From Haplodiscus bocki (taxonomy: Eukaryota): 64,000 bases of DNA. Shown here one piece after another: positions 16,309 to 64,000 of the stretch; positions within the stretch are counted from its first letter, which is position 1, and every line of letters begins with the position of its first letter. The notes below the pieces were generated by a model. It was not told where the DNA came from. It worked only from the letters and a program-made list of their open reading frames with translations, and searched no databases. The position numbers and the translations under genes were made by a program. The stretch covers positions 78,740,001 through 78,804,000 of the forward strand of contig OZ296657.1 of the NCBI GenBank assembly GCA_965655095.1. Reading direction: 5' to 3'.

Positions 16309-16311
16309 AAC

Positions 16312-17665: not shown

Positions 17666-17701
17666 AGCATTTTGGCACAACCCCATCTAGCCTCCACAGA
17701 C

Positions 17702-27224: not shown

Positions 27225-28066
27225 TTACGATTATGTGAGCGTTATTCTTGATAGTTTTTAATAAATTATTTAAATCATTTTTTTATATTCTTTTATAGAT
27301 TTCAGACGATCCACCACTCCCCTTGCTGGAACACGACGAACTCGATTCGCTGCTCAACGGAATTGACTGGGACCAACTCTTATCTCCGCTTGATTGAATT
27401 TTGCCAACGGAGGCAGATATTGTAAATCTTCTTTCTTCTCCTTCCTCTTCTACCTCACCGGTTGTCTTGTCGGATCAGCCATCAAAACCGTTGTTCGACA
27501 AATTCCTCCAATCCTTAACAGACAACCCGATCCAATTCACAGATTACCCTACTGTCCCTCGGCAAGAATCTCGAGTCAATTTTATTTCCTTCATTGTTTG
27601 ATTCCAAAGCTCACACTAACAATCCTCAATCGGTGGGATAACAATCTACTCCCTCTCCTCCAAGACGACAACCCTTTGGTTCGACGGCTCTGAGAGCCTC
27701 AACTCAAGACGCCCGAGCTTCTTTTTCACGACCAAATAGGTTTCAAAACAATCAGCAAGTTTCTGCACAGAAACGGTGAGAGAGTTACCTTCAACGCCGC
27801 AAGTCTCTTCTAAGACCCAAATTCAAACCCTACTCACATTACAAACAAAAAAATGCCTTCTTTTCTTGGGAGATTGTATTCTTGGCTTATAGCAGACAGG
27901 AGTATACTATTCAGAATACTGCCTTATTATCACAGAGACTTGTGGTGCCTCTAACAACTATTCTAGTTCAGCCCGTCGAATGACACTGAACCTAGACGCA
28001 CCCATCTTTGAGCCAAAAAACCGCTAACGAATATATTCTATAAATCGCCCTGAGTTGCTGATCGCA

Positions 28067-29284
28067 ATGGATGCAACCACTTCTCAAGATGAAACTGAAC
28101 CTAATGGTCAAGCCAAATGCCCCAAAACTTCCTCGGATTCCAGGAGCCCCCCAGTTTTGGAGCAACTTCATCTACTGACCACTCAAACTGACCACCTCAG
28201 AAAAACCTCAGAACAAGCACTGGAACAAACAAAGCCCCTAATTCAAACATTCCCGCTGGCCAACATGAAGCAGTTCTAATATCTTCACTCCGTTCAACAC
28301 CAAGTAGCTCAATTTTTTGTAGATCTCAATATCGAGAAACGCAAACGCTTCAAACAACACGCAGGTATTCGCCAGCTCGAAGATGGGCTAGCCCAAATGC
28401 GTCGGGAGGTCAGTGAACTCTCACCTCCTTCATTTCTTGTTCCTTTTACAGTCAATCCACCGTATTCTACTGGTTTCCAAGACAATTGTGCCCTAAACAA
28501 GGCCCAAATACCAAAGCCTTCGATAACATTAACTCTTTAAAGAGCCTCCAGCACTACATTCAAATCATGGCTACCTGATCAACCACGAGGTCCACCACCA
28601 ACCATACCAACTTCCAGACATTCTTTCTTGGACTTAGACGCCCGAGCAAAACATCTGGAAGAAGAAATTACAAAGGCAAGGAACTGTCGCGAAACAATTA
28701 TATCCATCTACCGATCCCAATTTACCTTTCTCTATGACAGATTCCAAGCCCTTGAGTCTGGAGGCCCAGACACTAACCTGTGGAAATTAACTTCACTGAT
28801 ATTGGATTTCGACACCGCCAAATCTGCTACCCGACTGGACGATGCTGCCAAAATCCCCAATACTCATTATAATAGCCCTGTGTACCGCACACACCCTCAA
28901 GGCTTTAACTTTTTTATTCAATTTTACCCATATGGTTTGGACTCTGCCTTAGGAAATCACGCCTCAGTTATTTTCGCCTTTTGCCCCGGCGACTACGAAG
29001 CTTTATTGACATGGCCGTTCCCAAAAACAAGTCATCTTTCAGTTCTCGATCAACTCGACCCCGAAAATAAGTGGACCCTTACCTTTGCACCCTCAGGGAA
29101 AATATTCTCTCGAAGGCCTACCCGAGAACCGTGTCCTACCCTGACGAGTTTCATTTTCTTCCCACACAGCAGGATGTTCAGCATGACGGAAAACTTCCAT
29201 TTAATACATACTTTATATTTGAAGATGAAAATCACCGACCTGCCCGACCCTGCAGGAGCCACACCTTCCTCATTCCCAACATGA
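28067..29284 (+). pseudogene. Element A accessory gene: coiled coil + TRAF-C (MATH) domain, no RING; two in-frame stops
   Basis: LWKLTS...YNSPVYRTHPQGFNFFIQFYPYGLDSALGNHASVIF...GDYEALLTWPF...LSVLDQ is the TRAF MATH signature. ORFs 28055-28279 and 28628-29284 share a frame. Confidence 0.85.
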
Positions 29285-29896
29285 TCCTTTCTAAAGAACC
29301 CCACAATCATTTTTCTATTCTTTTAACCCCAGTGAGTTGTGGCGTTATAGCTAACGCTTAAGCAGATGTATTGTAATTCTCAGATATGTGCAGTGAGCTA
29401 TTAAACAGGAAATGACTAGTATTTAACAAGAGAACTGCAGACGTTATTGACTAGCCTGGGAGCCGTGGAGGGAATAATATAAACTCTGTATAAAGGAAGC
29501 TGAGAGGATTGGAATTGCACAAAGCAAAGAGGAAAGCAAAAGTTCCAAAAAGGTTGCAACGTGGTTCAAAGCGATTGGCTCAGTGTTCAAATTTAGACAT
29601 GCACCATGCTTGCACGATCACCTGACCGATCAGGTGACTAGTCATGTGATGTGACGACATAACTTCATTTTGGACCCGATCCGCAGTGCAGCTAACATCA
29701 TTCACTCCCACTTTCCCGCCTTGCGGAAGGTTGCTCATTATCAGAACTTCTCTCATTTTTAACGTCACTTTGCCAATTAGATTTTGACCAAAACATTTCT
29801 AAGTCTCGATTTTGCAAAGACTTAGAAAAATTTTCTCCTCTCCAAATGAGAGATATTCTTAGTCTTGATTTCGGAAAGACTTAGTCAAAAATCAAT

Positions 29897-30095
29897 AACA
29901 AGCACCATCGCAGCAACCAGTATCCATCTATCTACCAGCACCCCGGCAACAACCATCAGTATCCCAGCCGCAACCAGCAAACATCCATCAATCGGTATCC
30001 CAGCAACAACCAGCAGTATCCCGGCCGCAACCAGCAATCATCAAGCAAGCAGTATCCCAGCCGCAAACAGCAATCAACCAGCCGCAACTAGTATC
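29897..30095 (+). repeat. Degenerate ~21-bp CAGCAACAACCAGCAGTATCC-type tandem repeat
   Basis: Recurrent ccgcaaccagca / agtatccc units. Confidence 0.75.
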
Positions 30096-30099
30096 CATT

Positions 30100-30302
30100 G
30101 AGCAGCAGTCCAACATCAAGTAGCTTCAGTACAGCAGCGGTCCCACAACAAATAGCTTCAATACTGCATCTGTCCCACAACAGGTACCTTCAATACAGCA
30201 GCGGTCCCACAACAGGTAGCTTCTATACAGCAGCGGTCCCACAACAAGTAGATTCAATACAGCAGCGTTCCCACAACAAGTAGCTTCAATACGGCAGCGT
30301 CC
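30100..30302 (+). repeat. 32-bp minisatellite, 6 full copies plus a partial copy
   Basis: Unit CAGCAGCGGTCCCACAACAAGTAGCTTCAATA, starting at 30100, 30132, 30164, 30196, 30228 and 30260. Confidence 0.95.
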
Positions 30303-32576
30303 TAGCAGCAACCAGTTATCATCCGGCAAGAAGCGTCTGCGCGACTAAAGCCCGCCTCTGTTAGTTATCATTACGTTTCCTAGTAGAGGACATCTCGTTA
30401 GTGGTTGACCTAGGATTAACTGTCCGGCAGCAGGGTGTACGTTACCGCACAGTGTTTTTTTTACTAAAACTTTGATTAATTGGTAAAAGTAAAACACATA
30501 TAATAAACACGACCAGTTGAGAGTCCTTAAGACTAATGACCTGGTCGCAGACGAAAGATAAAATTGAATTACTGGTGTCCTGTAAGTCCAGATGCAGATG
30601 GTATCTCCCGGCAGGTGACTAAATACCAGCCTTAAGATTAAGTCCGACGAGCGAGTGTTTCATCATAGCACGAAGGTTTTTTTATACTAAGAATAGTCTA
30701 AAATGCATGTAATTAAAATGCATGTACTTTAAAATCCCTTTCCTGTAAGCCTGATGGCATCTCCAGCTTGGACTGAAGCAGCGACTAGGAGGCTAACTTG
30801 TTGGCCTTGTATTTCAAGTCCAGTGCAAGCATGGTTTAGCTAAACGTGAAACAAACTGTAAAACGAACTGGCTAAAAAAGCCGACTAGACAAGACGGAAA
30901 TTACGTCACCCGCACTAGTCAAAAAGTTAAAAGGTGTATGTTTTTGCTTCATTTACAGATGTTCCAGTTCTGACAGCAGCTATCGTGGATCAGTTGAATC
31001 ATAACATTTCAAAATTTTTTAATTTTATTTGAACTAATTTTAAAGAGTCCGTTCTTTCTATCAATGATTTTATAAAATTTTCTTTCAATTGAATTCAATA
31101 AGTTCAACTTTTGTAATTATTTTTAAAATTGCAGTTCGGACTAAATTAAACTAGTCTGAATTGGTGTTACTGAATATATACTTTCAGCTCTAATTTTAAA
31201 CAAGTTTATTTTCACCTGCTTTATAAGCTTTATAACTTCAATCAATTGGCGGCATCCCCTTCCAAGCCTGCTGCTAACACTAAACCTCCTTGTTGAATAA
31301 ATTGCGGCTCTTAGTTTTTTTGTTAAATTAATGTTGGCTGACTTTTAATCAACTTGCTAATGGCTAATGTTGTTGAAATAAAGAAAGAGAAGAATTGACT
31401 ATACTTTGTGAAGTATAAAGACCATTTGGCAATCTCCCGTGTAATATTCCATGCTTAAAGCCTCTGACAGAGCTGAGTAATTCCCCCTTGCATACGTGTG
31501 GTCACATTCCTTTCAGCAGTTCAACATTTTGAAATACCTTCACTGACAAATAAACTTTACTTTGTATTATTTTCCTCTGTAGCTCATATGTCCTTGCTTG
31601 AATTCACGCAATCCCTTTGTTCGCGCGGTTAAGCAAGGCACACTATTGAGACTTATAAAGAATAGCCGTCGCTACAATGCTGTAGTGCTGACTGAGTCAA
31701 CCCCCAGCAAGACACAACTGAATAAATAATACACTTCCAATACCCCCACTACGTGCGATACCTTCTTCAACCTATCTTGATTCACGAGTGCTATGAAAAA
31801 AATAATATTCCCAATTCAACAAAAATTGTACAAGTCAATTGATTGAGACCGTCAGGCACAAAATACTGGCTCTAGTCACGGCAAGAAAAAACAAATTTCC
31901 TGCAGCGGCAAATCCTAACTAGTCAGATATTCGGCACGTTCAGGTTAAAAAACAGCGTCGAAAGTTGCGTTGATTTTGCCCTAGGCTTAATAAACTGACC
32001 GTTGGGACCAATGACCTTTGGTTTCGGCTTCAGTTTAATGGTTACTTGTGTGCGCAATTTTCTTCCGTAACACTCTTTAGACAGCCTTCGATTTTAGAGC
32101 TGGGAAGTATACATTTTGTGACAGTTACTGCAGTTATACACACTTCGAAAACGATGCTGTCGTCTAATTTACCTTCCAGCCGACAAAAAAACTTCAAACG
32201 TTTGGATTGGTCTTTAGGCCGACCCTTTGCAGTATGATTGTATTATTTAATTTTGGGCAAGCTGTTCTAGCGAAAGTGATTGTTTTCTGCGCCTATGAAT
32301 GTTGACTTGACATCAATGCGATTCCTGTATTATACCCAGTAGAAATTGATTACTCTTTCAGTTGACCATTTACTATTGTGGTCTAGTTAACCTACGGATG
32401 TCAACTGATCTGATCTTATCTCTCTCTTTTTTTAGTGGATTTTGTAGTTGTAATTCTCCTGGTTTTTTCCCCGGGTTTCTTTTTTCACTTCGAAAAGTTT
32501 TCTACAATACTAACAGCATCAATTCAAGCAGAGCTTTCTGTGTTGGTTTGTTTGTCCCGTTTTCTCGAGAAGCGGA

Positions 32577-35453
32577 ATGTTCTGGAAGTGTATTGCATTT
32601 TTGTCCGCCTTGTTTTCCAAAGTTCGTGGCGCTCAAATCCTTCAAATGAACGTCAGAAGCCTAGTGAACTTTGATCGAAGAGCCAAATTAGCAAATGCAA
32701 TCACCTCCAATAACTATAACATTATATGTCTCTGTGAAACTTGGCTTAACGTTAACATTGCCTCCAGTGAGCTCTTACTTGACGGCTATGACATCTTCAG
32801 AGCAGACCGTAAAGCACTTCATGATCAAAACCCCCATGGAGGGTCATTGATTGCTGTCAAAAACAACTTTGCCGCCGAGGAAGTCCACAACCCGAACATG
32901 CCCGACAGCAGTATTGCGTGCAAGATCACAATCTGTGATGTAACCATAATTATATGTGTATTCTACAACCCCCCAGCTTCGAGTAAATACCGATATGAAC
33001 TAGCCGACTTCATAAATCTACTTAATTTCTTCCCCAAAACCTCCCAATTAGTTATCTGTGGAGATATAAACTTCCCAGAAACGAACTGGAGTTCCTTAAC
33101 CAGTCTCTCTGACTACGAACAACAAGTTCTCGACGAATTCGAGGATCGTTGCCTTCTACAAGCCATTGATTTCAAAACGTGTGGCCAAAACATTCTGGAC
33201 GTCGCCTTCTATTCAAATTGTCATATACACGCCAAGCGAGATGATTCCTTCGAGAATATATACGACTGTTCAGACCACCACGCCATCCTGCTACAGTTGG
33301 AATGTGCACTCTATGAAAAGAAACCGACCCTGGAAAGATGTCGAAGCTTCGGAAGCGGTGACTATGATGCTATGAACGAAGCAATGCGCTCCGCGCCTTT
33401 TGACTCTATCTGTCACACCAATATTGACAAAATGACGGAAGAACTATACAAGTACTTTGATTCCATAATCGAAAGACACGTTCCAAGACGCACCTTCCAC
33501 AGGCAGCAACTACCACCCTGGATTACTCGCAGTACCTCGCATTTGATCAAGCAACTTGGTACACAAAAACGTTTGCTCAGCCGCAAACCGACCTCGTATC
33601 GAAAAACAGCAGTAACTAATCTGGAAAATATAGTGTTCTCCGCATGTGAAACAGATAGAAAAAACTATCAAGAGGAACTGATGGGTTCGCGAAACACAGA
33701 TGGAATATTCAAGCATTTGAAGAGTCTCAAAAAATCGATTTCCCTCCCCAACGAAATGACCGATGGGAAAAGTACCGTGACAGCGCCCGTTGACAAAATC
33801 AACTTGCTGAACAACTTTTTCCAATCAGTCTTCTCCTCCAAACAAGTGTTCACACACGCCGATATCAAGGCCGAACAAAGCATTCTGACAAATTTCAATG
33901 TCTCCAAAAGTAAAATCAGGAAAATTCTTTCGTCCTTAGATGTCACAAAAACAAGAGGACCAAATGGCCTACCACCCATCTTCTTCAACAAAACCGCTCT
34001 TGAAATAACTCCAGCCCTACACAAACTCCTGCGCAATATCAAACGTCTCGGCAAGCTTCCCGCGACATGGAAAACTGCTGCCGTCTCACCCATATTCAAG
34101 AAAGGAGACCGAAGGTCAGTCGAAAACTGGCGACCTATCTCCTTACTGAATATAGATAGCAAGGTGCTTGAGAAGTGCATGTATGAACCCCTCTACAACC
34201 ACTTTGGGCAGTTTCTGACCCATAGTCAACATGGATTCACGAGAGGAAGATCCGTCATGACGAACATGTTACTCTTCCTGAACAAAATACATAAGGCCCT
34301 TGACAACAACAGTCAGGATGATGTAGTAGCCTTCTATACTGACTTCTCGAAGGCATTCGACAAAGTCCCTCACTTTGAACTACTGCAAAAAGTAGCGAAC
34401 ACCGGAGTTGGAGGATGTTTCCTTGAGGTACTTGTTGACTACCTGAAAGATCGAAAACAGTATGTGAGAGTTGACAACCAAAGGTCCATAACCTTACCTG
34501 TCAACAGTGGCGTCCCTCAAGGGTCCCTTCTCGGGCCTTTACTCTTTTGCATTTTCATCAATGACCTCCCTGACCGCCTCAAATTCAGTGAGCCCTATAT
34601 CTTCGCCGAAGATCTCAAAATACTTGCAATAAAGCCTGACTCTATTTCTCTCCAAAGAGACTTGAGAGCAATCGAAAGTTGGGTAAACGAGAACAAAATG
34701 AGCCTAGCAATGGACAAATGTGCCAAACTCACTTTTCGAGGCATAAACAAGAACTTCAAATTGATGGGATCAGTGCTTGAATCTTCAAGCGAAGTCAAGG
34801 ATCTGGGTGTAATGATAGACCAAAAACTGAGCTCAACTAGACATGTCGATGTCAGACTGGCGAAAGCCAGAAACGCCCTTTATTACGTCAGGCGAAATGT
34901 CGCTTATCAGATCAGCCGCCAGGTCAAACTTGGTCTGTATAAATCGTTAATTCTCCCGATACTGACCTACGGATTTCACTGCTACAGCCCTAACAGGACG
35001 GACCTAAACAGGCTTGAACGTTTCCAGCGGAAAGCCATCAAATGGATAATGGGCAATCAGTCTGACGATTACAAACGTCAACTCAGTACTCTCAATCTCC
35101 TCCCACTGCCCATGTTTTTGCAAGTTAATGACTTACTCCTGTTCTCCTCCCTGTGTAATGAACAACATGAGATGATACCCCCTAGAGTTCCACCAAACAG
35201 GCGAACACGCACACTCTTCGAAACAGGTGGAGCCCGAACGGAGAAAGCGAGATCGGAATTCTTCTTCAGAAATAGCCGATTAGCGAACAGACTTAACTTG
35301 TATATCATCTTTGACGAAAAGGCTGGACTCAAAAGTAGGATTCTGAGAACAATGAAAGCGATATTTGAAGAAAGGTTCTCATTCCAAAATGTCTGTACTT
35401 GGCAGGCAGCCTGTGACTGTCACCAGTGCAGAGACTTGTGGACAACAATCTAG
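32577..35453 (+). CDS. LINE (CR1/L2/jockey group) ORF2: APE endonuclease + reverse transcriptase, 958 aa open frame
   Basis: APE motifs QMNVRSL, LCETWL, GDINFP, SDHH; RT motifs WRPISLL, QHGF, YTDFSKAFDKVPH, GVPQGSLLGPLLF, FAEDLK, KDLGV. Confidence 0.95.
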   Translation: MFWKCIAFLSALFSKVRGAQILQMNVRSLVNFDRRAKLANAITSNNYNIICLCETWLNVNIASSELLLDGYDIFRADRKALHDQNPHGGSLIAVKNNFAAEEVHNPNMPDSSIACKITICDVTIIICVFYNPPASSKYRYELADFINLLNFFPKTSQLVICGDINFPETNWSSLTSLSDYEQQVLDEFEDRCLLQAIDFKTCGQNILDVAFYSNCHIHAKRDDSFENIYDCSDHHAILLQLECALYEKKPTLERCRSFGSGDYDAMNEAMRSAPFDSICHTNIDKMTEELYKYFDSIIERHVPRRTFHRQQLPPWITRSTSHLIKQLGTQKRLLSRKPTSYRKTAVTNLENIVFSACETDRKNYQEELMGSRNTDGIFKHLKSLKKSISLPNEMTDGKSTVTAPVDKINLLNNFFQSVFSSKQVFTHADIKAEQSILTNFNVSKSKIRKILSSLDVTKTRGPNGLPPIFFNKTALEITPALHKLLRNIKRLGKLPATWKTAAVSPIFKKGDRRSVENWRPISLLNIDSKVLEKCMYEPLYNHFGQFLTHSQHGFTRGRSVMTNMLLFLNKIHKALDNNSQDDVVAFYTDFSKAFDKVPHFELLQKVANTGVGGCFLEVLVDYLKDRKQYVRVDNQRSITLPVNSGVPQGSLLGPLLFCIFINDLPDRLKFSEPYIFAEDLKILAIKPDSISLQRDLRAIESWVNENKMSLAMDKCAKLTFRGINKNFKLMGSVLESSSEVKDLGVMIDQKLSSTRHVDVRLAKARNALYYVRRNVAYQISRQVKLGLYKSLILPILTYGFHCYSPNRTDLNRLERFQRKAIKWIMGNQSDDYKRQLSTLNLLPLPMFLQVNDLLLFSSLCNEQHEMIPPRVPPNRRTRTLFETGGARTEKARSEFFFRNSRLANRLNLYIIFDEKAGLKSRILRTMKAIFEERFSFQNVCTWQAACDCHQCRDLWTTI

Positions 35454-43210: not shown

Positions 43211-43675
43211 AATACCAGTCGACATTAATAATGGTGCAGTATAAATTTGGTGCATCTCAGCGTTTAAATAAATTAGTTTCAAATTTTCTCGTGCAAGAAA
43301 TATGTGTTTGATTCATTTTTTTGCCTGAGATCCTGCGATCATTCTTTCTGGCGTGTGTCCTTGCGACAGAATGTTCATGATGATTATAATATGTCCTCTA
43401 TCAAAAGTAAATCTTATAAATTAGGGAAACGAAACGAAAGATTTTTCTGAACGTTTTCGAGCCTTCTAGATCAGTAGAGTATTTAAGGAATTCGAAAACA
43501 GCAAATTGTTTAGATATACCACCTGCCATGTACTGATAGTTTTATCAGTATTATTTGAGAACAGTAAACCTCCGAATCGACCTCCGAATCCGTCGAACCT
43601 TTAAACTATCAAATAATCACCTTTAAATCATCAATAATTTTTTTCATATTACTACACTTGCACAGGCAAATGTTA

Positions 43676-44316
43676 TATAACAATTGCTTGTTTTCGTTCT
43701 TTTGATTCTATTTTGAATAGCTATCGAAATGCGCGGGCGATTGTTGGGGTTTTAAAGTTGCTATCTCTTGGCGTTGAAAAGGGGGATATCTCTATTGAAA
43801 AACAAATTTGCAAAAAGAAGAAACGGCTTTAATTAGTTTTAGTTATAGTTAAACAGAATTTTTACATTCTGTGCAAGACAATTTATCAGACAAGATAGAA
43901 TGAGAAAAATTACTCGACTTACATTTCAGTGGTTGAGGGTGGGTCTGAATAGCTGAGTTTTTACTTTTTCGATATTTATTTCTGCAGCTGCAAGTTGCGA
44001 GTCAGGTGAAGAGCAGATGTAAACAGTCAAAATAAAACAATAATAGCTCATGAAAAGTAATATTTAAAATAAAGCAACAATAGATTTAAACAAAATTCAC
44101 ATTTGCACTTTCAATATGCAGGTGAAATTAATAAATATTAAAGCGCTAAGCACAAAGACATATGAACGTGTTTATATTTTTAACGGTTATAAAATAACAC
44201 AAGAAAGAAATTGCAGCAGTCTTTTTTATTGTATATGTAGCTGAGTCTTTCCCTTTTTTTGAAAAAGACATTAAAAAAGATATTAGTCATCGATTTCTTT
44301 TCTCCGCTCCGTTATA
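43676..44316 (-). repeat. Element B 3' LTR
   Basis: Direct repeat of 54498-55140; termini TATAAC...GTTATA. Confidence 0.95.
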
Positions 44317-44328
44317 CTACCCCAGCCC
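44317..44328 (-). promoter_or_regulatory. Element B polypurine tract
   Basis: Minus strand GGGCTGGGGTAG abutting the 3' LTR. Confidence 0.75.
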
Positions 44329-44343
44329 ATGTAGATTGTGTCC

Positions 44344-44884
44344 TCACAAGGTAACTGTCGCGGTGTAGGCTATGACGGAGGGGTTGCAGACCATGCAGGT
44401 TTGAAGTCGTTGAGCGCGCCGGGCGCCGTCCACACCGCAGCAGTTGTAGACTTGGCGCAGATGTCGGTTTAGGAGGATAGTTTTGGCTTCTTGAACAAGG
44501 GGGACAAGTGGGGCTGTGCTGGTGGGTGCGCTGGGATTTTTGTCCGGATGAATTAATAGAAGAATGTGACGGGCGTGCGAGTTAAGAGTGTCAGCTGAGG
44601 CAGTTGGTGAGCAGCATAAAAGGTCATATAACATGGGACTCTGGTGCAAAGTCGAGGGTCGTTGCGTATGTAGACAGTTGATGGAGTAACATTTCCTTAT
44701 ATGCCTCATGGACTTGGGGATTTACTGCAGCGGCCTTAAAAGAAGACACTTGTTCAGTTAACTCGAAAGTACGAGCAAGCAAGCTGGAGTTTTTTTCATT
44801 CAGAGCAGTTAAACGTTGATTTAAAGCAGTAATTTTAGTTTCTTTCTCTCGCAGTTCTTGCACGGTTTCCCCGAGAACCAACAC
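44344..44884 (-). pseudogene. Element B accessory gene: coiled coil + DnaJ (J) domain, one frameshift
   Basis: LYDLLCCSPTASADTL...LLLIHPDKNP...VQEAKTILLNRHLRQVYNCCG is a J-domain with intact HPD. Removing 1 nt near 44635 joins it to coiled-coil ORF 44624-44884. Confidence 0.85.
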
Positions 44885-45646
44885 CGAGAAGTGTTCTTAG
44901 CGGCCGCGTGGGCTTTTTCAAAGCCTTTTTGGAGGCACTGCACTGCAAATTACGTCACCAGAAGCTCCATGGCCTGTTCTGCGTCCATGGATGCTTCGGC
45001 AGCTACATCAAAGGTGTCGGGGAGGACAGGAGGTGGTAAAGGAGGGAAGCACAGACAATTTTCAGTGGGCTCGTTGACATTCACACTGATGGAGAGGGAA
45101 GTGGGAGGAGGAGCTGGTTAGCTGCGCGAACAAAAGGGCGGTTCTGGGGAGCGTTGATTTTCTTGAGAGTGACATTTTGGGATGTCGTGTTGATTCGAAT
45201 AACACGATACTCGAAAGGATCTAGCAGTCGTGCGAGATGTCCAGGAGCCAAGTCCGCGACGCGGCCAGAGCAGGTGACGAAAGGGGCAGCGCGGAAAGAA
45301 ACAGCTGAAGAGAGCCTGAAACAGAAAAAAATTGATTGACTTTTGTTACGATTTAAAATGACAGACTGTACAAGACAACATGCAAACAACAGCAGGGATG
45401 GGGCACGGGAATGTGTCCAAAGGCCCCGATTCAGGAAACTCAAACAGTAGGGAGGATCTTAGGCGATAAGTGGCACCGTACGGAAACGCACGTTGAAAGA
45501 CACTAGCAAAGCTAGGTGAAAACATGAACAGGGTTGAGAAAGTAGCACGGAAACGTGCTTAAAGACACCAAAAGTTGGGAAAATTAGTGTATGAGCATGA
45601 GTTATGTTGTTGGAGGAAATTGTACGGACACGTACAAAAAAAGACA

Positions 45647-47394
45647 TCAACCGAAGTTGAGTAAAAGCGTAGGCGAGCTAAAAATGAAGGATGACATGTG
45701 TAACAGTATGATGAAAGTCGCGGTGCGTGAGATGTGATACATGCCATCCACAAGATAGAAGGCTTGTGGAGCGTCGGGCAGCAGAACTGAAACGACTTGA
45801 CAGTTGCGGAGGGCTGGGATATCGTATTTGTAAATGAGTGAACCCAAACAAAGGAGTGTTTCATCTGTTGTTGTGTAAAAACCTTTCGGCAAAGTTTGAT
45901 TCGATTGTTCCCGGAACACTGTTGCAGTGTTAGCGCTCCAAGCTCAGCAAACCTCGTGTTTTCGGTGGATATTGCGAGAAAAGGATTTGTGAAAATGTAC
46001 AAGGAGGCTTGTTTTCTCGTCTTTATTCGGCTGATATAACGGTGTGGCATGGTATATATCAAATGTTGAAGACTTCGAATTCATTGGTTTGCCCAAAATA
46101 ACGGATATGCCACGAGGAATGAGCGTGACCTCTAGGACAAGTTGTATTTCGTAATATATTGCCTCAAAACCAGGGCGTATTGCCGGTGACAACTTTGTTC
46201 CACGGGCTACTTCGTCATCCGTTAACTGCTTGATAATTTCGGCAATTTGTTGGCGTAACAAAAATTGTGGCGTGATATAGCCACCAGCTAACGACGAGAT
46301 TGTTGAGAAGAGTGAAATGTTGTAGGCAAAAATGCTGCGCGGTATGCTTTCAAATGCGTGTATAGTGTTCCCATTTGGTACACGTAATGCCTGATTGGTT
46401 GCAAAAGGTGCATGTGTCGTACAATGACGTGGTCACATGCGAGGCTAGTACGGGCCAAGAATAGTGTTGCGTTTACGAGGTAGAATTCCATGTGTTTGAA
46501 TCGTACGTCCACTACTTCCTTCAACGTGCGAACACTTTCCTGTGTTCTTTTGATTTCTTTTCCCAGTAGGAAGAAATTCTTATCGTTTCTCGTTTGCACA
46601 CGTTCCAAATTTTTGACAATTGCGTCCTGTGTGCGCATGATGTTGTCCACATCTCGTGACAGAGCATCGTTGTTTTTACAGAGGTTGAATATTGACAGCG
46701 CATTGCATGCAGCATTTTTAATTGGTTCTCCTTGAACTAATCCGGCGCCGGCTGCCACTGCTGCAATCGCTCCAATAGCTCTGCGTGATCGGCCACCCGG
46801 TTGTTGGTCCCTTCGAGCACCGGGCGGAATGAAGGAAATGGCTACGTCGAATAAACTCTTTTTCTCTTCCAACGCTGCCGTCAGCTCATATTCTAAAAAG
46901 CTAACTCTTGTTTCAAGTTGTTGGAGAAGGAGGGCATATGTTTCATTGAAATACATATACTTGCAGTTTTCATTGATGTACATGACAACAATCGAGTCAG
47001 GGGCCCGTTTGAAAGCTTCAACCATGTATCTTGCTTGGGTCAGGTTAATTGCCGGAATCCGAGGGAACGGTGAGAAATTACGGGCTTTACTCTCGCTTTC
47101 GGAGGTAACCGCTTGATATTTGAAAACAAAAGCAGCGCCTTTCTTGAAGACTGGTTTAGCCAAATCATCACCCACATGAGTGGTAAATTGCATCTGGAGC
47201 TTGATTAAGGGCAAGAAGACACTCACTAGTAGAACCGGGGGATTCAGTTGCCTTATTGAAGTGACTCGTTTGGATTTTTGAGAAATCCTGAAACAACAAC
47301 GACGTGGAGGAATTGCGCAGAGATCCTTGAAAGTAAGGAAAATAAAAGGTATATAAATGCGAGCTTGTGTAAAAAAAACAATAAAGAAGTTCAT
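45647..47394 (-). pseudogene. env: Element B envelope, class I fusion protein, frameshifted and apparently C-terminally deleted
   Basis: Furin site RSRR followed by the hydrophobic fusion peptide AIGAIAAVAAGAGLV and heptad repeats; downstream Cys-rich region (LQQCSGNNRIKLC...LLCL...RNC) across ORFs 45944-46261, 45559-46062 and 45647-45919. Confidence 0.85.
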
Positions 47395-47407: not shown

Positions 47408-50400
47408 TCAACGTTGTGGCTGTGTTTTGCCCGAACGATTGGGGGAATTGAAATCAGTAAGATTTGTCGGCAAGTTTGACATAAATAAGGGTTGTGCTGG
47501 ACGCTGTTGCATCGTCGATGCTCTCAATGTTCGATGTTCCTGTGGCGTTTGTGAAGCAACGCGAAGCTTTGCGGTGGCTTGATCAATGATTTTTCGTTTG
47601 CGAGAACGTCCACCAGGTCGACTTGTCGGAGTACTTGGGGAAAACGTTTTGTTTGACAGTCTTTGAGAAACAGGTGAGCTGGAAAGAATATTAGTTCGGT
47701 TTTTGGTTGTTGAAGTCGACGTTGGTGTGATTGTGGTGCTTTGTTCTGAGTTTTGGGCGTACGGGACTGTCGAAGCAGGTGTGTGCGGGACTGTGACTGT
47801 CCCCATCGGGGGTGTTGCTATTGCAGGTGTAGGACATGGTATTGGGAGGTTGCTACCTGAGAAAGTCTTTGCTATGGAAGGCGAAAATTGTTGAGGTGTT
47901 GGTAAAGATGGCCACTCGGTGTAGTAGGTATGATCGATATCATTTCGAGGAGTTGAAGACCTAAGCGTCCGATTTCGAGTTGGTACATTAGAAGTTGAAG
48001 TCACAATTTCAGGAGTTGTTTCTCTGGTCGGGATGTTCGTAGTGGGGGGCTTCCTTCGGAATGGTTTCAAACGGTCGTAATGTAACATGGATTCTTTTCC
48101 TGTACTGACTTCTTTGATTCGATAGTTCACGTCATTCAAGCCTTTCAGTATAGTGTAAGGACCACGCCATGGGCTAAAAAAACTTGGGGCTTCGGCCAAC
48201 CGGTACCACTGGCGTATGTAAAAGCACTTCTTGTCCGTCTCGGTGGGTGGGGCCTTGTACCTTGTGAATATATATGGCGTTACGCCGTCGCTGATTCTTG
48301 TTAAGATTGTCGTGGACCAACGCAAATGCTCGCTGAAAAGCTTGTTTTCTCTGATGGACAAACTCATGAACATTAGTTGGACAATCGGATTCTGGGCTCG
48401 GAAACATGAGATCCAAAGGTATTGAAGTTTCTCGACCGTGCACCAATAATTGTGGGGTGTATCCCGTGGATTCATGCACAGACGATCGATATGCCATCAT
48501 CACGTAAGGGAGTTGTTGTGACCAGTTGTTTTGGTCTGCGTTTATGCACTTCGCGAGCATATTTTGGAGGGTGCGGTTCATACGCTCAATGACCGCATTA
48601 GACTGAGGATGGAAGGCGGTCGTACCAGACTTGTCTATCTCAAGGAGAGAAAGTAGGTTCTTGAAAAGTCGAGATTCAAACTTGCGTCCTTGGTCACTGT
48701 ATGCTATGTGGACAACCGAAGCGACTAATCTAATGTTCTATCAATGCAGTGGCAGTTGTTGATGCCCTCTGGTCCGGTAGTGGTACAGCTTCATACCATT
48801 TACTGAAGTGGTCGCCAATCAAGCGGATTACTTTGTGTCCGTTGGATTCCGGTAACGGTCCCATGAAGCCAATGCCAATGTGGCGGAAAGGATAGCTAGC
48901 TTCCCAATCTACAAGAGCATGGCGATGTGTTTTTGGTGGGTTACTTTGGTGGGTTACTTCGTGTCTGACATTGGGGAGAACGACTGACAAAAAGTTTCTC
49001 ATCTTCTTGGAAACCGGGCCAATAAAATCTTCGTCTAATTTTTTCGGTAACCTTCGCTACACCTAAGTGTCCGCCAGTTGAGGAAGAGTGATTAGATTCC
49101 AAAAGTTACTCTACCATACTCTGAGGAACTATTAGTTGAAAAGAAACACGACCGTATGTGGGGTCAAATTTACGACAAAGTGCTCCGTCTGATATACAAA
49201 GACTGCTAAATTGATTATAAAGTTGCCAAGCTAACCGTGGGCTACCCTGGAGGTCGTTGTTTCTTGGTACACGTGACTGTCGAACCCAATCTTTGACCAA
49301 CTTCAATGATTCGTCTCTATCTTGCGCAAGTCGGATACTTATGGTGAACGAGGGGTTGGCATGATCAGTCACACTGTTATTGGAGGCTTCTTTTAACTCC
49401 GTGGAGTCCAACATATACACTGTGAGACGTATTTGCGATGTTGCGAACTCCTCCTTTAACATTATGCGGACTAGGTGCCATTCTAGTTGGTCGATACCAC
49501 AACCAAGTTTGGGCATACTGACTGCTTTGACATCATTGTCTTCTGCATGACGTCGAAGGGCCACTAGAGACGTTCGCAAGGAGCAATATGTTGGTTTGTC
49601 GAAAACTCGAACTTTGGTTAGAAGATGGTAGATGTATCGTTGACTTGACTCCAGAAATTGTGGGCAAAGTGATTTTTGATGCAGAGTGTCAAGTTTCAGG
49701 TAGTTTGTCGGATACTTTCGTCGAAAAGTACGGGCGATTCCAGCACTCATCTTGTAGTCCGAGGAGACACAGTGAGCGAGAGAAACGCTGGAGCTGAAGA
49801 TATCGCCAACTTTTTCATGGTACTCGAAGGTTTGAACTTCAGTGTTCGGATTAGCCAAGGAAGACGGATTCGGTGGCTGTGGAACTGGATGAGGGGTAGT
49901 AAGGACTTCAGTTGTTAGGGTCAATTCCTGGTTTGGCATTAGGCCATTCATCTTCCACTGTTGGCTTGACTTCTGAAAGATCAACCACTTTGGGATCGTG
50001 GTGAATTATCTGCACTTTAGCTTGAGGAATGCGGGACAACCCATCGGCATGTCCAATTGATTTTCCCGGTTTGTGTCGGACCTCGTAATCGAAGGCGGCC
50101 AATTTCTCGAGCCACTTTGCTGGTAATCCGTCAGGGCCTTTGAAGTTGTGGAGCCACTGAAGTGCTCGGTGATCCGTAACGATGGTAAACTTGCGACCCA
50201 AAAGATAATGTCGAAAATGGCGTGTGAAGTGGACAATTGCTAAAAGCTCCCGCTTGGTTGCAGAATATCGGGTTTGAGCTTTCGAGAAAACCTTGGAAGC
50301 GTAGCAAATGGCACGTTCTTTGCCATTTTGAACCTGAGCGAGAACAGCGCCCATTGCAGTCAAGCTTGCGTCTGTGTACAAAATAAAAGGTTCTTTCATT

Positions 50401-52263
50401 GATGGGAAATCTAAAATGGGAGTTGTTAGGAGGCGTGCTTGCGGAATTTCGAAAGCTGTCTGTGCCTCAGGTGTCCAGCTGAAGGAAGGACTGGACTCGA
50501 TTAATTTGTGGAGTGGTCGAGCAATTTCGGCAAAGTTTTCAACATAACGGCGGTAATATGAGCAAAGACCCAGAAACGACTTTACCTCTGTTTGACTGGT
50601 GGGGATGGGGAATTTTTTTACTGCAGCGATTTTTTCGGGATCTACCTGTAGACCATTGGCGCTGAGGACATGTCCCAGAAAGTGGACTTTGGTTTTGAAG
50701 AACTCGCATTTCAAAGATTTATTTTGAGATTTGCTCCACGAAATCGTTGGAGGACGGCTCGGAGTCTTTCTAAATGCCCTTCAGGGGTTGCGGCCAAGAT
50801 AATACAATCGTCCAAGTAAGTAACAGTGGTCGTCCATGTCAGACCTACCAGGACATGTTCCAATAAACTTTGAAAAGTGTTGGGACTTCCCGTGAGACCC
50901 ATAGGCATTCGGAGCCATTTGTAAGAGTCAAAGGGGGTGCTAAACGCTGTGAAGTCTTGACTCTTTTCATCCATTGGTAACTGATGAAAGCCCCAGTACA
51001 TATCAATCGTCGAAAAGAAAGCACTTCCTTCTAACGTGTCGAATATTTCTTCAATTGACGGTATGGGCCAACAGGACTTGATTGTTTGTTGATTCAGTTG
51101 TCTGTATTCTATTACTAATCTCAACTTACCATTTTTCTTTGGGACCAGCATGGCTGGTGCGCTATACGGACTATGACACGGCATTATAAGCTCTTTGTCA
51201 AGAAACGCGTCAATCTTTTCTCTTAGATCTTGCTTGTAGTGGAGAGGTAGTCTTCGATTCGGTAATTTGACGGGCTTTGAACCCGGGTAAAAATCAATCT
51301 TGTGACTTGTGGCATCGCACTTGCCGATGTCCCATTGATTTTTTGAAAAAACATCTGCGAATTCTTGCACAAGTTCAGCGAACTTATGCCTCATTTTGAT
51401 GGGTATCGCCGGACTGATTGAGTTTATAACGTGCTTGAGGTCATACGACTCATCAACTTCATTTGTTTTTGACTTCGGTGGTGCGGAAACTATGTGGTTC
51501 AACGCTTGTTTTGGAAAGATTTCAGAGGTACCCAATGTTGTGTTTTCGTATACCGTAATCACTTCATCCCAGGTTTTTTCAATTGTGACCGTTACATTTT
51601 CTTCTGCGAAGTTTAAAAGGACGCTGGGGACCACGGCGTTTTTCAAAGTACTTATTCGTGCCACCGGCTCAAATAGAGCGGGCATTTCCGTCAATGGTCG
51701 TTGCCATTCTTGTATTCGGGCTGGCAAAATCATGGCATATCCAGCCGGCACGGAGACTGTCACCGTCGCTATCACCCGAAAAACTGTGTTCACTTCGTGA
51801 TTGAATTTACGGTTATACAATGGTACATGATTCTTGGAATCCAAGCGAAGTAGATCTTTGGAAAACAAGGGGTCGCATTTGTTAGTTCTCAAGAAGTCTA
51901 GTCCCACAAGACAATCTGCTTCTGAATCGATGAGCACGTGAAATTCGTGTTCGTAGTGTTTATGACCGATTGTGATCGGTAGGCGAACTGTTTCTCTTGA
52001 AGTAATTGGCAGCTTCTTTGCAGCCACGAGTTTGGTTTTCGTCGCCAAAAGTTTCAATTTACCCCCAATTTTTGAAGCTTATCAAAAACTTTTGAGCTGA
52101 GGCAAGACAGACTTGCTCCACACTCGCAGACTGCTTCGATGGTTTCATCACCGAAAACAGTCATTTTTAGAAACACACTCCCGTGATCAACCACGGAACT
52201 GAGTGTTTGAATTTGTCTGCGCGGCGACCCGTGGGCGTAGACTTTTCTAATTTGAAGAATCAT
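47408..52263 (-). pseudogene. pol: Element B pol: protease, RT, RNase H, macrodomain, integrase; disrupted
   Basis: PR AVCECGASLSCL (like DSGA); RT PYSAPAMLVPKKNG, MPMGL, YLDD; RNase H LYTDAS...TDHRAL...ADGLSR; IN FMGPLP, MNRTL, YRSSVHESTGYTP; WRGPY motif. Confidence 0.95.
49409..49828 (-). CDS. TARG1/OARD1-type macrodomain within element B Pol, between RNase H and integrase
   Basis: GDIFSSSVSLAHCVSSDYKMSAGIARTF...RYIYHLLTK...KPTYCSLRTSL...SMPKLGCGIDQLEW...IRLTVYML is end-to-end similar to OARD1, with no stops. Confidence 0.93.
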
Positions 52264-53408
52264 TTCTTTTGGACCTGCAGTCCCTTCGGAAATGACCGGG
52301 TTTCAGACAATTGAAACAAGCCTTGTGGTCTTTGGAATTATGGTTTGTTCTCTTGCAATGCTTACATGCGCTCTTGTTACTGTCGTGTTCATTTCTCTTC
52401 TTGCGCTGTCTACTTGAGCCATTGTCCCGATTTTGGTTATCGGACCTGCGAAAGTTCGTCCTTTCTCGTTCTTGAGGAGATTGGAACCTAACAGAGCGAG
52501 TGCTACTTCTAGAATCATTGCTCAGTGAACGTGACCGCTTCATGTTCTTATTGTTATTGGAGCCTGGTTGCCTTTGGGTACTTTGCAACTGTGAGTTTTG
52601 CAAACTGTGACTCAACAAGCGAACAATTTCTTCCAAAGGTTTCCTTTGATGTACCCTGTGCTACTCTGTTAACACTTTCTGTTACTGCGGAATTTCCGTT
52701 CTCAATTTCTAAAAATGCGTTGAGCTCCATTGCGGCAGTTGAGGCGTCGTCCGGTGTTTGCGGTTTCGCTTTCGGCAGTTCCCACCGCGGAGTTTTGTCG
52801 CTGAGTCCTTCTACGAACGTGGTCAAGACCATTGGGTCTATCATTCCAGGAAAATCACGATATGCACGCCTAGCAAGGGTGCGGACATCGCAGAGGAACG
52901 CTGCGATATCTTGCTTGGGTTGCTGTTTCGCAGCTTTAAGACGTGCTTTCAAAATGTCGCCATTGGTTGTGTATTTCTGTCGGAACGCCTCAATCAACAG
53001 ATCATCAAAATTTGTCTGTTGTTCGAAAAACAGTGTTGTGAAGAAGTGAAGGGCGTTTTCCTTCAGGCGAAGGACGAAGTAATGCGGTCGGTTGTCATGA
53101 GTGTTGGAGTGCCATCCTGACAAGAGGGCGGCTGTGTTGAACTGTTGTTAATAATCTTCAAAATCGCTTGTGCCTGTGAAAGACTCAGGCATTAGGCATG
53201 AGGGGAGCGGAGTGACGTATGGGAAGCCTCGTCCTCCTTGTGGACTGGCTGGCATTGCAAAGAAATTAGCACCCGTGGTGTTTGAAGTCTGGGTGTTCGT
53301 TATTCCGATGGCTTGGTGATTACTTCCAGCTGAGTTACCTGGATTCTTCTGAGAATGTTTTTGTCCTTGTTGGTTAGTAGGCGTCGTTGGAGGAGACGAG
53401 TTTGACAT
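52247..53408 (-). pseudogene. gag: Element B gag with two zinc knuckles, disrupted
   Basis: MPESFTGTSDFEDY*QQF...LRLKENALHFF...TFVEGL; knuckles CKHCKRTNH and CFNCLKPGHFRRDC. Confidence 0.92.
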
Positions 53409-54478
53409 TTTGCTCCAATTTTTTTTGTTAGAAAAAATTTTAGAGTCGGTTCATTCTTCTTGAGGTGAAGTTTATGGGAGCACACTCAGGAAACCTGAGG
53501 AGGATGGATTTGGCACATGTAGGGAAAGAATTCCAATATGCGAACGCCAAATGTTTGCTAAGTTGGGAAAGAAATGTGCAGACGATGATTTTACACTAGA
53601 AGTTTGAGTGCTGGGAAGAAAGGGGAGTTGAGGTTGTCCAGTTAGATGTTTCCAATGATGCATTGCTTCCAAGCGAAGATGAATACTCATTTGGTGGGGT
53701 GTGAACAAGAAATCTAGTAGTTGCGACAAAGGAATTTTCAAAAATTTTGCTCGGCAGAAGTAACACGGTATAATGTATGTTTCAGGAACGGCATTCGAAA
53801 ACACGGACACAGGGATGCAAAAAGTGAACATTTTTTGTGACTAATATTGTTGTTAAACAGGGGTTTTATCACTTTCTGAGGTTTGAATGCTTTGACAATT
53901 AACGTTTACACGGTTTACTTCGTACGAAAGACCGCAAAGTGCTAAAACGATCATCAGCAGCGCGAAAGTTTGAACGATAATCAAGAAAGTCAAAAAACAG
54001 GTCGAAAACGTCGGTCCGGAACGGGCTTCGTCGTAAAAAGGCGGCGGACCGATCGATCGAGGTTTTTGATGCGGTGAGACGTACAGCGGCAGATGCGAAT
54101 GAAGGTGAGAACACGGCATTTATAAAACTTTACCAAAACGCATCAAGAACCAGAAAAATCAGAAAAAGAAAATTCGTTCTATCTAAGTACTCACGTGCGT
54201 GTCCTATTACTTAGGGGAATGAAGGATACTCGGTCAGCTTTGCCAAGACTCGCATGAATGCGGGAAAATTGCCAAAAACACGCCGAAGCGGTAAGGACAC
54301 AGCAAAAGCTGGAAAACTAGGCACGGACTAGGTCCGGAGAAAGAGATCTTATCGGCATCACTGGAAAACCAAGAACAAGCAAAAGAAAGCTCTACAAGGG
54401 AAAATGGGTCTGGGCCGGACAAATGATTGAAGAACTAAGTGAATTTTACAGTTTTAGAGAGAAATTTTCAACAGAGAC

Positions 54479-54496
54479 ATCCCTCTCCTGTCACCA
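54479..54496 (-). promoter_or_regulatory. Element B primer binding site, tRNA-Leu type
   Basis: Minus strand TGGTGACAGGAGAGGGAT, 1 nt after the LTR; 16/18 match to the complement of the typical animal tRNA-Leu(CAG) 3' end (TGGTGTCAGGAGTGGGAT). Confidence 0.85.
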
Positions 54497-54497
54497 T

Positions 54498-55140
54498 TTT
54501 AACAATCGATTGTTTTCGTTCTTTTAATTTTATTTTGAATAGCTATCGAAATGCGCGGGGCGATTGTTGGGGTTTTGAAGTTGCTATCTCGTGGCGTTGA
54601 AAAGGGGGAGATCTCTTTTGAAAAACAAATTTGCAAAAAGAAGAAACGGCTTAAATTAATTTTAGTTATAAACAGAATTTTTACATTCTGTGCAAGATAT
54701 TTTGTCAGGTAAGATAGAATGAAAAAAAACTATTCGACTTACATTTCAGTGGTTGAGGGTGGGTCTGAATAGCTGAGTTTTTACTTTTTCGATTTTTTTG
54801 TTTCTCTGCAGCTGCAAGTTGCGAGTCAGGTGAAGAGCAGACGTAAACAGTCAAAATAAAACAATAATAGCTCATGAATAGTAATATTTAAAATAAAGCA
54901 ACAATAGAATTAAATAAAATTCACATTTGCACTTTCAATATGCAGGTGAAATTAATAAATATTAAAGCGCTAAGCACAAAGACATATGAACGTGTTTATA
55001 TTTTTAACGGTTATAAAATAACACAAGAAAGAAATTGCAGCAGTCTTTTTTATTGTATATGTAGCTGAGTCTTTCCCTTTTTTTGAAAAAGACATTAAAA
55101 AAGATATGAGTCATCGATTTCTTTTCTCCGTTCCGTTATA
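54498..55140 (-). repeat. Element B 5' LTR
   Basis: Direct repeat of 43676-44316, adjacent to the PBS. Confidence 0.95.
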
Positions 55141-55207
55141 GTTATAACACAGTGATATTAGTTATCGATTTTCCCTTTCTCCGCTCCGTTATAGTTATAA
55201 CACAGTC

Positions 55208-61300: not shown

Positions 61301-63292
61301 ACTTCACGAACGGTATTAAGTTGACATGTACAGTACAAAATCAAAATGGATAGAAATTACCAAATTATGTAGATTCTTCAGAATTTTTGAGGTTCACGTG
61401 TCCTTGAGACAAACTAAATTATAATTCACTTTACACTGAAAATGATGTGGGGGTTGCATTTTCTACAAAGTGAGTTCTTTGTTTGCAAAATTCGATGGTT
61501 ATCTTTCAGTACGTTTTGAATAAACATTAGAAAAGTTGAAACATAAAAAAAAACATTGAAATGAAAATTACAAATGTGTTAGTGAAGTCACTGAATTACT
61601 CACATAAATCGGTTAATTGCTGAATAATGAGATTCTCTGTGAAAATTCTGTTACTACATTTTGTAGGCTGATTCATTTGTAGCATAAAGCAATACTGCGC
61701 TGCTAACACGGCTAACTGCATCTTAAAGCGAAAGTTTTTTTCATATGAATGTTCGACTTCGGAAATTTTGCAATTTTCTGTGGTTTTAAGTGCTCTTAGA
61801 AAAGTTGAAAGGAAAAATGGAGATCCACCACGATACGTTATTGAACAAGGATCTGTAGAGCACTCTGGTGGTAGTACCATTCCTATCGCCGGTGTGGGCC
61901 AAGCTGGACCAATTTGGGATGATGAAAGAAGTAGCCCAGTTCAGCAAAAATTATATGAACAGGCTCCGGAAAAGTCAATAGAGACGAAATTCACAAACGC
62001 CCACAATACGATTGTACACTAGAGCAACGAGCTTGCATCTAGCGTCGGGTGAGTGACTTGTTATTAATGTCATACAAACGCTACCATTTTGGGTGATGTA
62101 AATTCTAATAACTTCGGAGTACAAGTTACGTCGTTTAAAGCGAGTCAAACTAAAGAATAGATGAGAAATTAAAAAATAGCTCACGAGGCGTTCTCCGCAC
62201 AATAATCGGGAGCTGTAATTAGGAGTGGTTACTGTTCTCAATATCAAGCTTTGCAAAAAGGGGGTGAAAAATGTAGTCAAAATGGTAGTTTCTAGACGTT
62301 TCACTAAGTTTTAGAAGTTTGAAAGTTTGAAGTTATTCAAGGATTTTCTAAACCTCCTTCAGCACTGTAGTGAACTACAGTAGGTCCAATGTGAAGCCTA
62401 ATTGAGTTGTGAGCGGTCAACCAATTTATCACGAATTAGGTGTTCATGTTGAAATTTTTGTGGTGGAGCCAACATTTTCCACGAGGCATTTTTCTTTGCA
62501 CGAGGAGTTGCTTCAGTTTATAACTTGCGCCATTTTGGCGTGCCTTCACACAACGAATTGGCCAGTTTTCTGTTTGATGCAACTTATCAAAGAGTTTGGT
62601 TGTGCGCTATCATCGGATAACTGCTTGCTTTCTCTCGAAAGATCAATTTAAATTTTCAAGATAATAACGTCTACTGTTTTTTTCCGAGAACTGTGAAGTT
62701 TCTGGTTATCAGTTACTTCTCAGAATAATCGTCTGTTGGAATCTTCGCGAAAATTCACACCTTTTACATTATTCTATTAGAGTTTGTTTCAGATTGTTAT
62801 TTTTCGCCTCCATGTTTATATGGAAAAGAAAATTATTCTAAGTCTAGTGTCGTTTTTCTTTTTCAGACACGGTTTGCCATTTTAGAATTGTCACCACTTG
62901 TAATGAGAATTTGTTCGCTTCTTGTTCATAACTACCACCCACAAAAATCTATGATCAGCTGATTGGCTACCGGTACTCGCAAAATCAATTGATACTTCTG
63001 GTTACTTTTGATAATACATTTTTCTAACGTTTGTTCCTTATTTTGGAAGGCGGAAAGTATCCCGGAGTTTGCCGGGAGCTTGTTCAGTATTCAATTGCAT
63101 TCATCACTCACATCTAAACTACTATAGTAGTGGAAACATTTGGGGCTGTGTTGTGCACTAACATAAAATGTAACCGGAAACTTTCTTTCCTTGTCTTTCA
63201 TCTACTATCACCGAGACCTCTATACAGTTGTGCAAAAGCCGAGCTTCGTTCGGCTTTCAAAAAATATCGGTTAAAGCTCCAGAACTATTTTG

Positions 63293-63406
63293 GTGGTTAA
63301 ATATAGTGGACTTCTTGAAATAAAATGGGTAGTATGTAGCTTTTATTAACTATATTTTGCTCCATACTACCCATTTTATTTCAAGAAGTACACTATATTT
63401 AACCAC
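63293..63406. repeat. Long inverted repeat / MITE-like hairpin
   Basis: 48-bp arms (63293-63340 and 63359-63406) with 2 mismatches around an 18-bp AT-rich spacer. Confidence 0.9.
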
Positions 63407-64000
63407 AATAAACACAACTTGTGAACAAACAGATCAAAACCAAATTAAATCATGAGGATTGTCAAAAGACGTTCATTAATCATGAACACCTGCAAGAAAT
63501 ATATACTCATTCTGCTCTTTTTGACGGTGAATTGTATTCAGCAGAGAACCCCAGTGTGTTCCGCACGTCCCATGCAAACCTGTACAATGCAATTGAGTCT
63601 CAGCCATTCTCTTGGAAATAGAAATAAAGATATCCGCCATGCCGTCTTTGGGGCTTTGTTTGAATTGATTTCATAATGCGTTTGTTTTTAGTTAGTATCA
63701 TTAGTTAATAGAATATTTTTCATCTATTACTTTTCAAAACGAGTAAGGGATGTATGAGTTGAAAACAATTCTCGTTTGCTTTTCATGAGAAGGAATCTTT
63801 CCTGTTAATTCCCCCCTCCCCCACCAGTAGTAACGACAATTTTAATCCCCCTCCACGTAGAATCGAAGTCGTCTTTGGCTAAAGTTCGCTCGCGCGTGAG
63901 TTCAGCAGACACTGCGAAAATCTGCTGCTCTCAAATCAAAATTCTGCTGCCGCCCAAAATTAAATCTGCTTTTCTCTACCTTTTTGAAATTTCCGCCGAA

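Follow-up and report, generated by a model that had tools for sequence, protein, structure and literature searches.

ORF4, an accessory J-protein gene in a clade of env-bearing Ty3/Gypsy elements of Haplodiscus bocki

A 64,000-nucleotide stretch of Haplodiscus bocki contig OZ296657.1 (hereafter the window) contains a broken copy of a Gypsy element from a complex, env-bearing clade, and the members of this clade carry a real, selected accessory gene for a J-protein, which we call ORF4. With moderate confidence we propose that ORF4 is expressed by splicing and acts as a functional accessory J-protein of this env-bearing Ty3/Gypsy clade, steering Hsc70 onto a complex that limits expression of the element. 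Judging from its sequence, the gene very probably encodes a working J-protein.

The element spans 55140 to 43676 on the minus strand. It has the layout of a Ty3/Gypsy errantivirus (LTRs, primer-binding site, polypurine tract, gag, and the order reverse transcriptase (RT), RNase H, integrase) and resembles complex retroviruses in having an accessory ORF between env and the 3′ LTR. It is an old, dead copy, in which gag, pol and env are all broken. The 5′ LTR (54498..55140) is paired with the 3′ LTR (43676..44316), which is 94.3% identical to 54500-55140 (K2P 0.044 over 635 columns), and the element is flanked by a 4-bp target-site duplication, GTTA (43672-43675 and 55141-55144). A primer-binding site with a TGG start, which we take to be of the tRNA-Leu type, lies just inside the 5′ LTR (54479..54496), and a purine-rich polypurine tract (44317..44331) abuts the 3′ LTR. 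The broken gag (52250..53408) encodes a CCHC knuckle, with Pfam zf-CCHC above the cut-off and Retrotrans_gag slightly below (23.4 versus 24.1). Several broken frames make up pol (47411..52078), where RVT_1, RT_RNaseH and Integrase_p58_C scored above the Pfam cut-off and rve_3 below it. A macro-like domain is located between RNase H and integrase (49109-49800, minus strand; Pfam Macro 20.5 bits, cut-off 22), with weak or no match in most other element families. The env gene (45562..47287), with its own predicted acceptor at 47288, is shorter than in other copies by about 820 bases near 45718; a signal-peptide-like start, an RSRR site and a hydrophobic peptide can be read from its sequence. Profile matches of env to class I spikes were weak (best E 1.1e-4, in three of eight), and none to paramyxovirus F was found.

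Two small leader ORFs precede gag (53475..54119) and have counterparts in other families. One (53856-54119, minus strand) has 88 codons and a hydrophobic segment, its family counterparts being 74-89 residues long with a PPxY-like motif; the other (53475-53831, minus strand) has 119 codons, a PCYFC motif and several His residues, and its counterparts of 119-149 residues carry PCY(F/H)CQ. Neither matched Pfam. Their order is reversed in one of the clades described below (F), and a third leader ORF of about 100 codons occurs in the F and G clades (leaders of L087, L091, L093 and L095).

Elsewhere in the window, an older LTR element (16192-31758, plus strand; LTR pieces 85% identical) encodes a Monjiviricetes-type fusion glycoprotein (Pfam, 47 bits) and a TRAF/MATH-domain ORF (28541-29284, 50.5 bits), and also has a macro-like stretch around 19929-20336 as well as short tandem repeats (29910-30317). 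A LINE (32514-35453, plus strand) retains an open endonuclease-reverse transcriptase frame of 979 codons, and a 53-base inverted repeat, 92% complementary with an 18-base loop, is found at 63288-63411.

ORF4 occupies 44344..45315 on the minus strand and has about 325 codons in open copies. An earlier, sequence-only reading had given the gene as 44344..45000; this was too short, as ORF4 starts at an acceptor-like site at 45315/45316 and an N-terminal β-barrel had been missed. The upstream coding sequence to 45316 is present in the window copy, with the same acceptor site as in open copies. The claimed position next to the polypurine tract is correct, the stop codon (44344-44346) being 13 bases from the purine tract and 27 from the 3′ LTR, upstream of both. 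A coiled coil does lie upstream of the J-domain in another frame, as had been noticed, and a frameshift near 44640 splits the two; it is not the single lesion that was assumed, however, since two more frameshifts (near 44885 and 45110) and a stop codon (44950-44952) interrupt the gene.

The AlphaFold2 model of an open natural copy consists of a barrel (residues 10-70), a Pro/Cys-rich linker, a 70-residue helix, a four-helix J-domain and a poorly predicted tail, so that the predicted architecture of ORF4 is a KOW/Tudor-like barrel, a coiled coil, a J-domain and a Cys motif. No signal or membrane segment was seen in 11 ORF4 variants (maximum KD 0.73-1.21). Longer fused forms were absent among 8000 candidates, which is weak evidence; a viral fold library gave no match at E<=0.001, and the best hit in the ESM Atlas (0.79) offered no lead.

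The J-domain (44443..44631, minus strand), with an intact HPD at 44542-44550, is identified by Pfam PF00226, by sequence matches in the PDB, and by AlphaFold2 and Foldseek. The Pfam DnaJ search that had been proposed as a check matched the frame 44347-44721 at 34.2 bits (cut-off 27.8, E 2.7e-8; profile positions 2-63, frame residues 31-93), confirming the J-domain and HPD of the sequence-only reading. Seventeen solved J-domain sequences match the window frame at E<=0.01, and a DnaJ match was obtained for all 12 aligned ORF4 copies (E<=0.05). The J fold is present in the model as well, with helices at residues 227-233, 242-256, 266-283 and 285-293 (pLDDT 75-91). Foldseek, queried with the whole protein, ranks J-domains first to third, several with rmsd of about 2 Å over 64-66 columns, all at E>0.001; the KOW domains of Spt5/NusG and Tudor domains follow.

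HPD is kept at 57 of 64 loci and in 13/13 variants that share 20-85% identity; the seven exceptions each carry a different change and all belong to the window's group. The two outcomes that would have refuted the sequence-only reading, loss of HPD among copies and absence of a predicted J fold, both failed to appear. Among 20 diverse J sequences only six columns are invariant, HPD included. Given that HPD contacts the interdomain linker of Hsp70 (PMC9346034), the fact that it stays unchanged at 20% identity suggests Hsp70 engagement. Helix II, taken as the 13 residues before HPD, contains one or two Lys/Arg in the window and G clades and three or four in the F clade, compared with four or five in three aligned cellular J-domains (row E09, for which the wrong HPD had been picked, is excluded); helix III of the window's clade carries a Pro. 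A complex of the window J-domain with host Hsc70, ATP and Mg, predicted with no alignment, scored 0.26 and 0.30 against a mark of 0.34. We rejected assignment to class A or B DnaJ (Hsp40) proteins, as the J-domain is C-terminal and there is no G/F region and no Pfam match to DnaJ_C or zinc repeats; read from the sequence, the architecture is class-C-like.

The N-terminal SH3-like β-barrel (45105..45287, limits approximate; residues 11-70, model pLDDT 81-89) is KOW/Tudor-like. When searched alone it matched Spt5 KOW (Z 7.8), NusG (7.3) and Tudor (6.6), with none at 8 or above, a range common for unrelated small barrels. Derivation from the C-terminal SH3 domain of the element's own integrase was considered and dismissed (hhalign probability 2.9%). 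The long helix, a predicted coiled coil (44700..44990, limits approximate), corresponds to residues 128-198 of the open-copy model (pLDDT 83-94), and its coiled-coil Pfam matches were sub-threshold only. After helix IV follows the Cys motif (C/H)C-G ... CxxC (44386..44442), which may form a zinc site: 13/13 variants keep the second Cys, the Gly and both Cys of CxxC, the first position being Cys or His. The Cys-rich tail described earlier (YNCCG...TCMVC) is present, but in alignments YNCCG falls on the YDKYG/YDRYG that ends helix IV in cellular J-domains, so it belongs in part to the J-domain.

How ORF4 is expressed is suggested by the sequences at its start. The predicted acceptor (45316..45335) comprises a pyrimidine tract and CAG/G in the window, and YAG follows a T-rich tract in 35/35 open copies. 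As the start was located through a translated acceptor motif, the AG itself was partly selected for, while the T-rich tract and the next base fell outside that selection. This next base is G in 33 of the 35, where the first in-frame Met comes only at codon 15-120; in the other two it is A and an ATG of their own follows at once. A candidate major donor, D1 (AT/GTAAGT, 54737..54744), would supply the AT of a start codon. In the 300 bases before the primer-binding site, each of 11 family representatives has exactly one GT(A/G/T)AG, and it is preceded by AT in 11/11, against 14/103 for such donor sites inside the elements. The 40 bases upstream of D1 are unalignable among the 11 (at most 18 letters in common), and nine of them are poor in T before D1 and rich in T after it. 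The AT/GT of D1 is present in 31 of the 33 elements with a recognisable primer-binding site. The env acceptor, placed ahead of the signal-like start, has the same phase as that of ORF4, and one clade is without any in-frame Met there. We therefore infer that ORF4 probably has no start codon of its own and that the spliced RNA would create one, the LTR donor ending in AT being joined to an acceptor starting with G to give an in-frame ATG, for ORF4 as for env.

A second predicted donor, D2 (54189..54194, about 300 bases past the primer-binding site), was rejected as the source of the start codon, since in 10 of 12 elements the first donor after the primer-binding site is not preceded by an in-frame ATG; the two exceptions, with an in-frame ATG before D2, are the F72/F87 family. 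Four unlabelled sequencing runs aligned to the element behaved like genomic DNA, and the 15 of 142 joints listed included none between D1 or D2 and an acceptor, a result that is neutral on splicing. Searches of the genome for spliced retrocopies with two gapped motif patterns returned 0 places, and none were to be expected, since a D1-spliced RNA would be without the primer-binding site. A copy consisting of env and ORF4 only (L045/L046) proved not to be a spliced copy, its junction being a 10-base microhomology deletion.

ORF4 has hundreds of relatives in the genome. The J segment retrieved 150 matches among the 150 scored of 922 candidates, and many of them sit in open frames of 334-390 codons, in which homology begins directly after a T-rich tract ending in YAG. 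A protein database search gave 49 relatives; 117 cluster representatives were found at E<=1e-10, a few of which are ordinary cellular DnaJ proteins. When two distant database relatives were used as queries, 137 and 127 further genome matches appeared (best identities 56-57%; the three match lists may overlap). Two other database relatives had no match in the genome with those queries, which suggests that the ORF4 family occurs in other genomes too. Two of the database relatives score under the Pfam DnaJ cut-off. The most distant relative with the full architecture is P0146, a database protein encoded on a short contig, which is 24% identical to the nearest genome variant, keeps HPD and HCG..CxxC, and as a query was not found in the genome. 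A scan of JGI metagenomes confirmed 0/48 pattern matches.

Besides the window, 38 loci were opened, spread over the match lists; they were picked for long open frames, so their open-frame rate is biased. All 38 are Gypsy elements with ORF4 near the 3′ end, so that the attribution of the gene to such an element, made for the window alone, extends to the whole clade. Env lies upstream of ORF4 in 36 of them, two have gag-pol with env missing, and an LTR pair was seen in 35. Some elements with LTRs 98-99.8% identical have undergone deletions and keep ORF4: L045/L046 and L059/L060 are wholly or largely without gag-pol, L074/L084 and L089/L090 are without env. A fifth ORF of 205-264 codons follows ORF4 in the G clade (L080:2536-3327, L096:2947-3555, also in L081, L098 and L102); it has GASS and WHDxINNS motifs and a basic tail, matches nothing in Pfam, and is presumably SGNH-esterase-like.

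ORF4 is under purifying selection and is inherited vertically with the element. Its dN/dS is 0.11-0.23 in five within-family pairs (0-0.25 for the J-domain alone), with no robust value above 1; a single value of 2.2, for the barrel, is based on very few synonymous substitutions. In trees of 23 copies, the deep clades given by RT+RNase H reappear for ORF4 on branches several times longer, the long branches having been flagged by the tree program. This match between the trees points to a single old capture, after which ORF4 was passed on together with the element.

On a shorter timescale ORF4 and U3 have been exchanged as a cassette onto near-identical gag-pol-env, four times: L043/L044 and L030/L041 versus L002/L031, L072/L083 versus L087/L088, L051/L052 versus L049/L050, and L095/L096 versus L097/L098. 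The elements compared in each swap show 94-100% identity and little synonymous divergence across RT, RNase H, integrase and env, whereas their ORF4s share 56-68% identity and are saturated at synonymous sites; gag, compared at the DNA level only, is 95-100% identical in 500-base windows. The divergent stretch begins 100-200 bases upstream of the ORF4 acceptor; its other end, which could be traced in three of the pairs, lies in the LTR just after D1. In a fifth pair the difference is confined to the barrel-to-coil half of ORF4. Since a single template switch upstream of ORF4 carries U3 along with the gene, the swaps are no proof of selection on ORF4 and may be driven by the U3 promoter. If the swap boundary in the LTR marks the start of transcription, D1 would lie upstream of it and transcripts begun in the 5′ LTR would lack D1.

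The ORF4 product would be a soluble, cytosolic or nuclear adaptor of the class C type. Its J-domain, to go by HPD, would recruit host Hsc70 and trigger the ATPase of the latter, the coiled coil would oligomerise the protein, and the barrel, perhaps with the Cys site, might select the client. The most likely client is a protein-nucleic-acid complex that limits expression of the element, through host silencing or restriction or through a block to transcription or RNA export, and Hsc70 would then dismantle it in the manner of the polyomavirus T antigen. The host genome encodes cytosolic Hsc70 and Piwi-domain genes, and also Wnt genes, which mark it as that of an animal. Host defence and the element's own transcription or RNA export are equally tentative assignments for the client. 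More speculatively, these elements might form an invertebrate clade of 'complex' errantiviruses that, independently of vertebrate retroviruses, acquired an accessory gene set including an exchangeable Hsp70 co-chaperone cassette for counter-defence, its divergent versions being retained and swapped in conflict with the host; Hsc70 would then be aimed at host transposon-silencing or restriction machinery.

Two uses had been suggested for the gene from its sequence, capsid assembly or uncoating and remodelling of a host restriction complex; remodelling of a complex accords better with the fast evolution and swapping of ORF4, and the capsid role less well. Polyomavirus J-domains have been linked to capsid assembly, and a predicted soluble J-protein with a targeting barrel might in like manner take Hsc70 to Gag particles for assembly, budding or uncoating. 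We consider this unlikely, because a partner of Gag should track the backbone, and here ORF4 versions of 56-68% identity occur with gag-pol-env sequences that hardly differ. There is also little probability that ORF4 serves as a decoy or sink, its J-domain diverting Hsc70 without client delivery and so disturbing chaperone-dependent defence or stress control. Interference of the phage RB43 protein Rki with DnaK (PMC3486835) offers a precedent, and the scarcity of basic residues in helix II of two of the three clades, beside an invariant HPD, keeps such a role in play; but helix II of the F clade is near-canonical, and conservation of the barrel, coil and Cys motif suggests a targeted client.

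Still less is to be said for reuse of a J-like fold without Hsp70, as a structural or zinc-binding module in which HPD was retained for another reason. The strong divergence of the surface around HPD and the sub-cut-off Pfam scores of two database relatives would suit this very improbable reading, against which stand the place of HPD among so few invariant columns and its contact with the Hsp70 linker. That ORF4 is a captured host DnaJ fragment, decaying as a functionless passenger, is hardly credible: the window copy is broken four times, yet its gag, pol and env are equally broken, the dN/dS values largely refute the idea, and the conserved splice signals, the HPD kept across 20% identity and the congruent trees all speak against it. 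Retained throughout a Gypsy clade down to 20% identity, with splice signals conserved and the cassette exchanged repeatedly, ORF4 offers a defined protein for studying the means by which animal retroelements escape silencing or get their unspliced RNA exported.

To our knowledge, retrotransposons are thought to borrow host chaperones rather than to encode a recruiter of their own. J-domains encoded by viruses are already known, as are extra ORFs in LTR elements; no LTR retrotransposon was described as carrying a J-domain gene in the searched literature, which covered few subscription journals and no repeat databases and so cannot prove absence from print. In the polyomavirus T antigen an N-terminal J-domain, which recruits Hsc70, is combined with LxCxE and a helicase. 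A virus-type J-domain with HPD is common to both proteins, but that of ORF4 is C-terminal, behind a barrel and a coil, and in a retroelement, and the likeness is known for the J-domain alone. We rejected a T antigen-type identity for ORF4 after inspection of the alignment, its only Pfam matches being DnaJ and weak coiled-coil ones. Virus-encoded J-domains with an HPD able to act on Hsp70 are described for the SV40, JC and BK T antigens (PMC9346034). Phage RB43 Rki (PMC3486835) is likewise a mobile-element J-protein that is no generic co-chaperone and works via host Hsp70, and differs in its bacterial host, its DNA phage carrier and its architecture.

Among the closest known elements are the metazoan env-carrying Ty3/Gypsy errantiviruses (PMC13524379), which share the LTR-gag-pol-env-LTR layout, young multicopy families and, as read from the sequence, a furin site and a fusion-peptide-like env. 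The main text of this 2026 survey, which may or may not include our elements, contains no DnaJ, J domain, chaperone or Hsp40, and its seven supplements no DnaJ, J-domain or ORF4. In the Drosophila springer subclade, the start codon of env is completed by splicing to an AU dinucleotide (10.1101/2023.08.03.551782); the donor there serves env only, whereas here one predicted donor would serve both env and ORF4. The CERV protein of C. elegans Cer1 is a spliced accessory protein needed for export of unspliced RNA (PMC10309623), and like ORF4 it is encoded next to the 3′ LTR and has a coiled coil and a Cys-rich loop. Unlike ORF4, it has other domains and no J-domain ('chaperone' is absent from the text of PMC10309623), and Cer1 is described there without env. 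The ORF3s of bdelloid LTR retrotransposons (PMC5408684) are, similarly, captured, exchangeable, located near the 3′ LTR and expressed from spliced messages; they encode GDSL esterases, DEDDy nucleases or TM proteins, with no mention of DnaJ. The elements described here also show that env-bearing Gypsy elements can equal complex retroviruses in gene richness.
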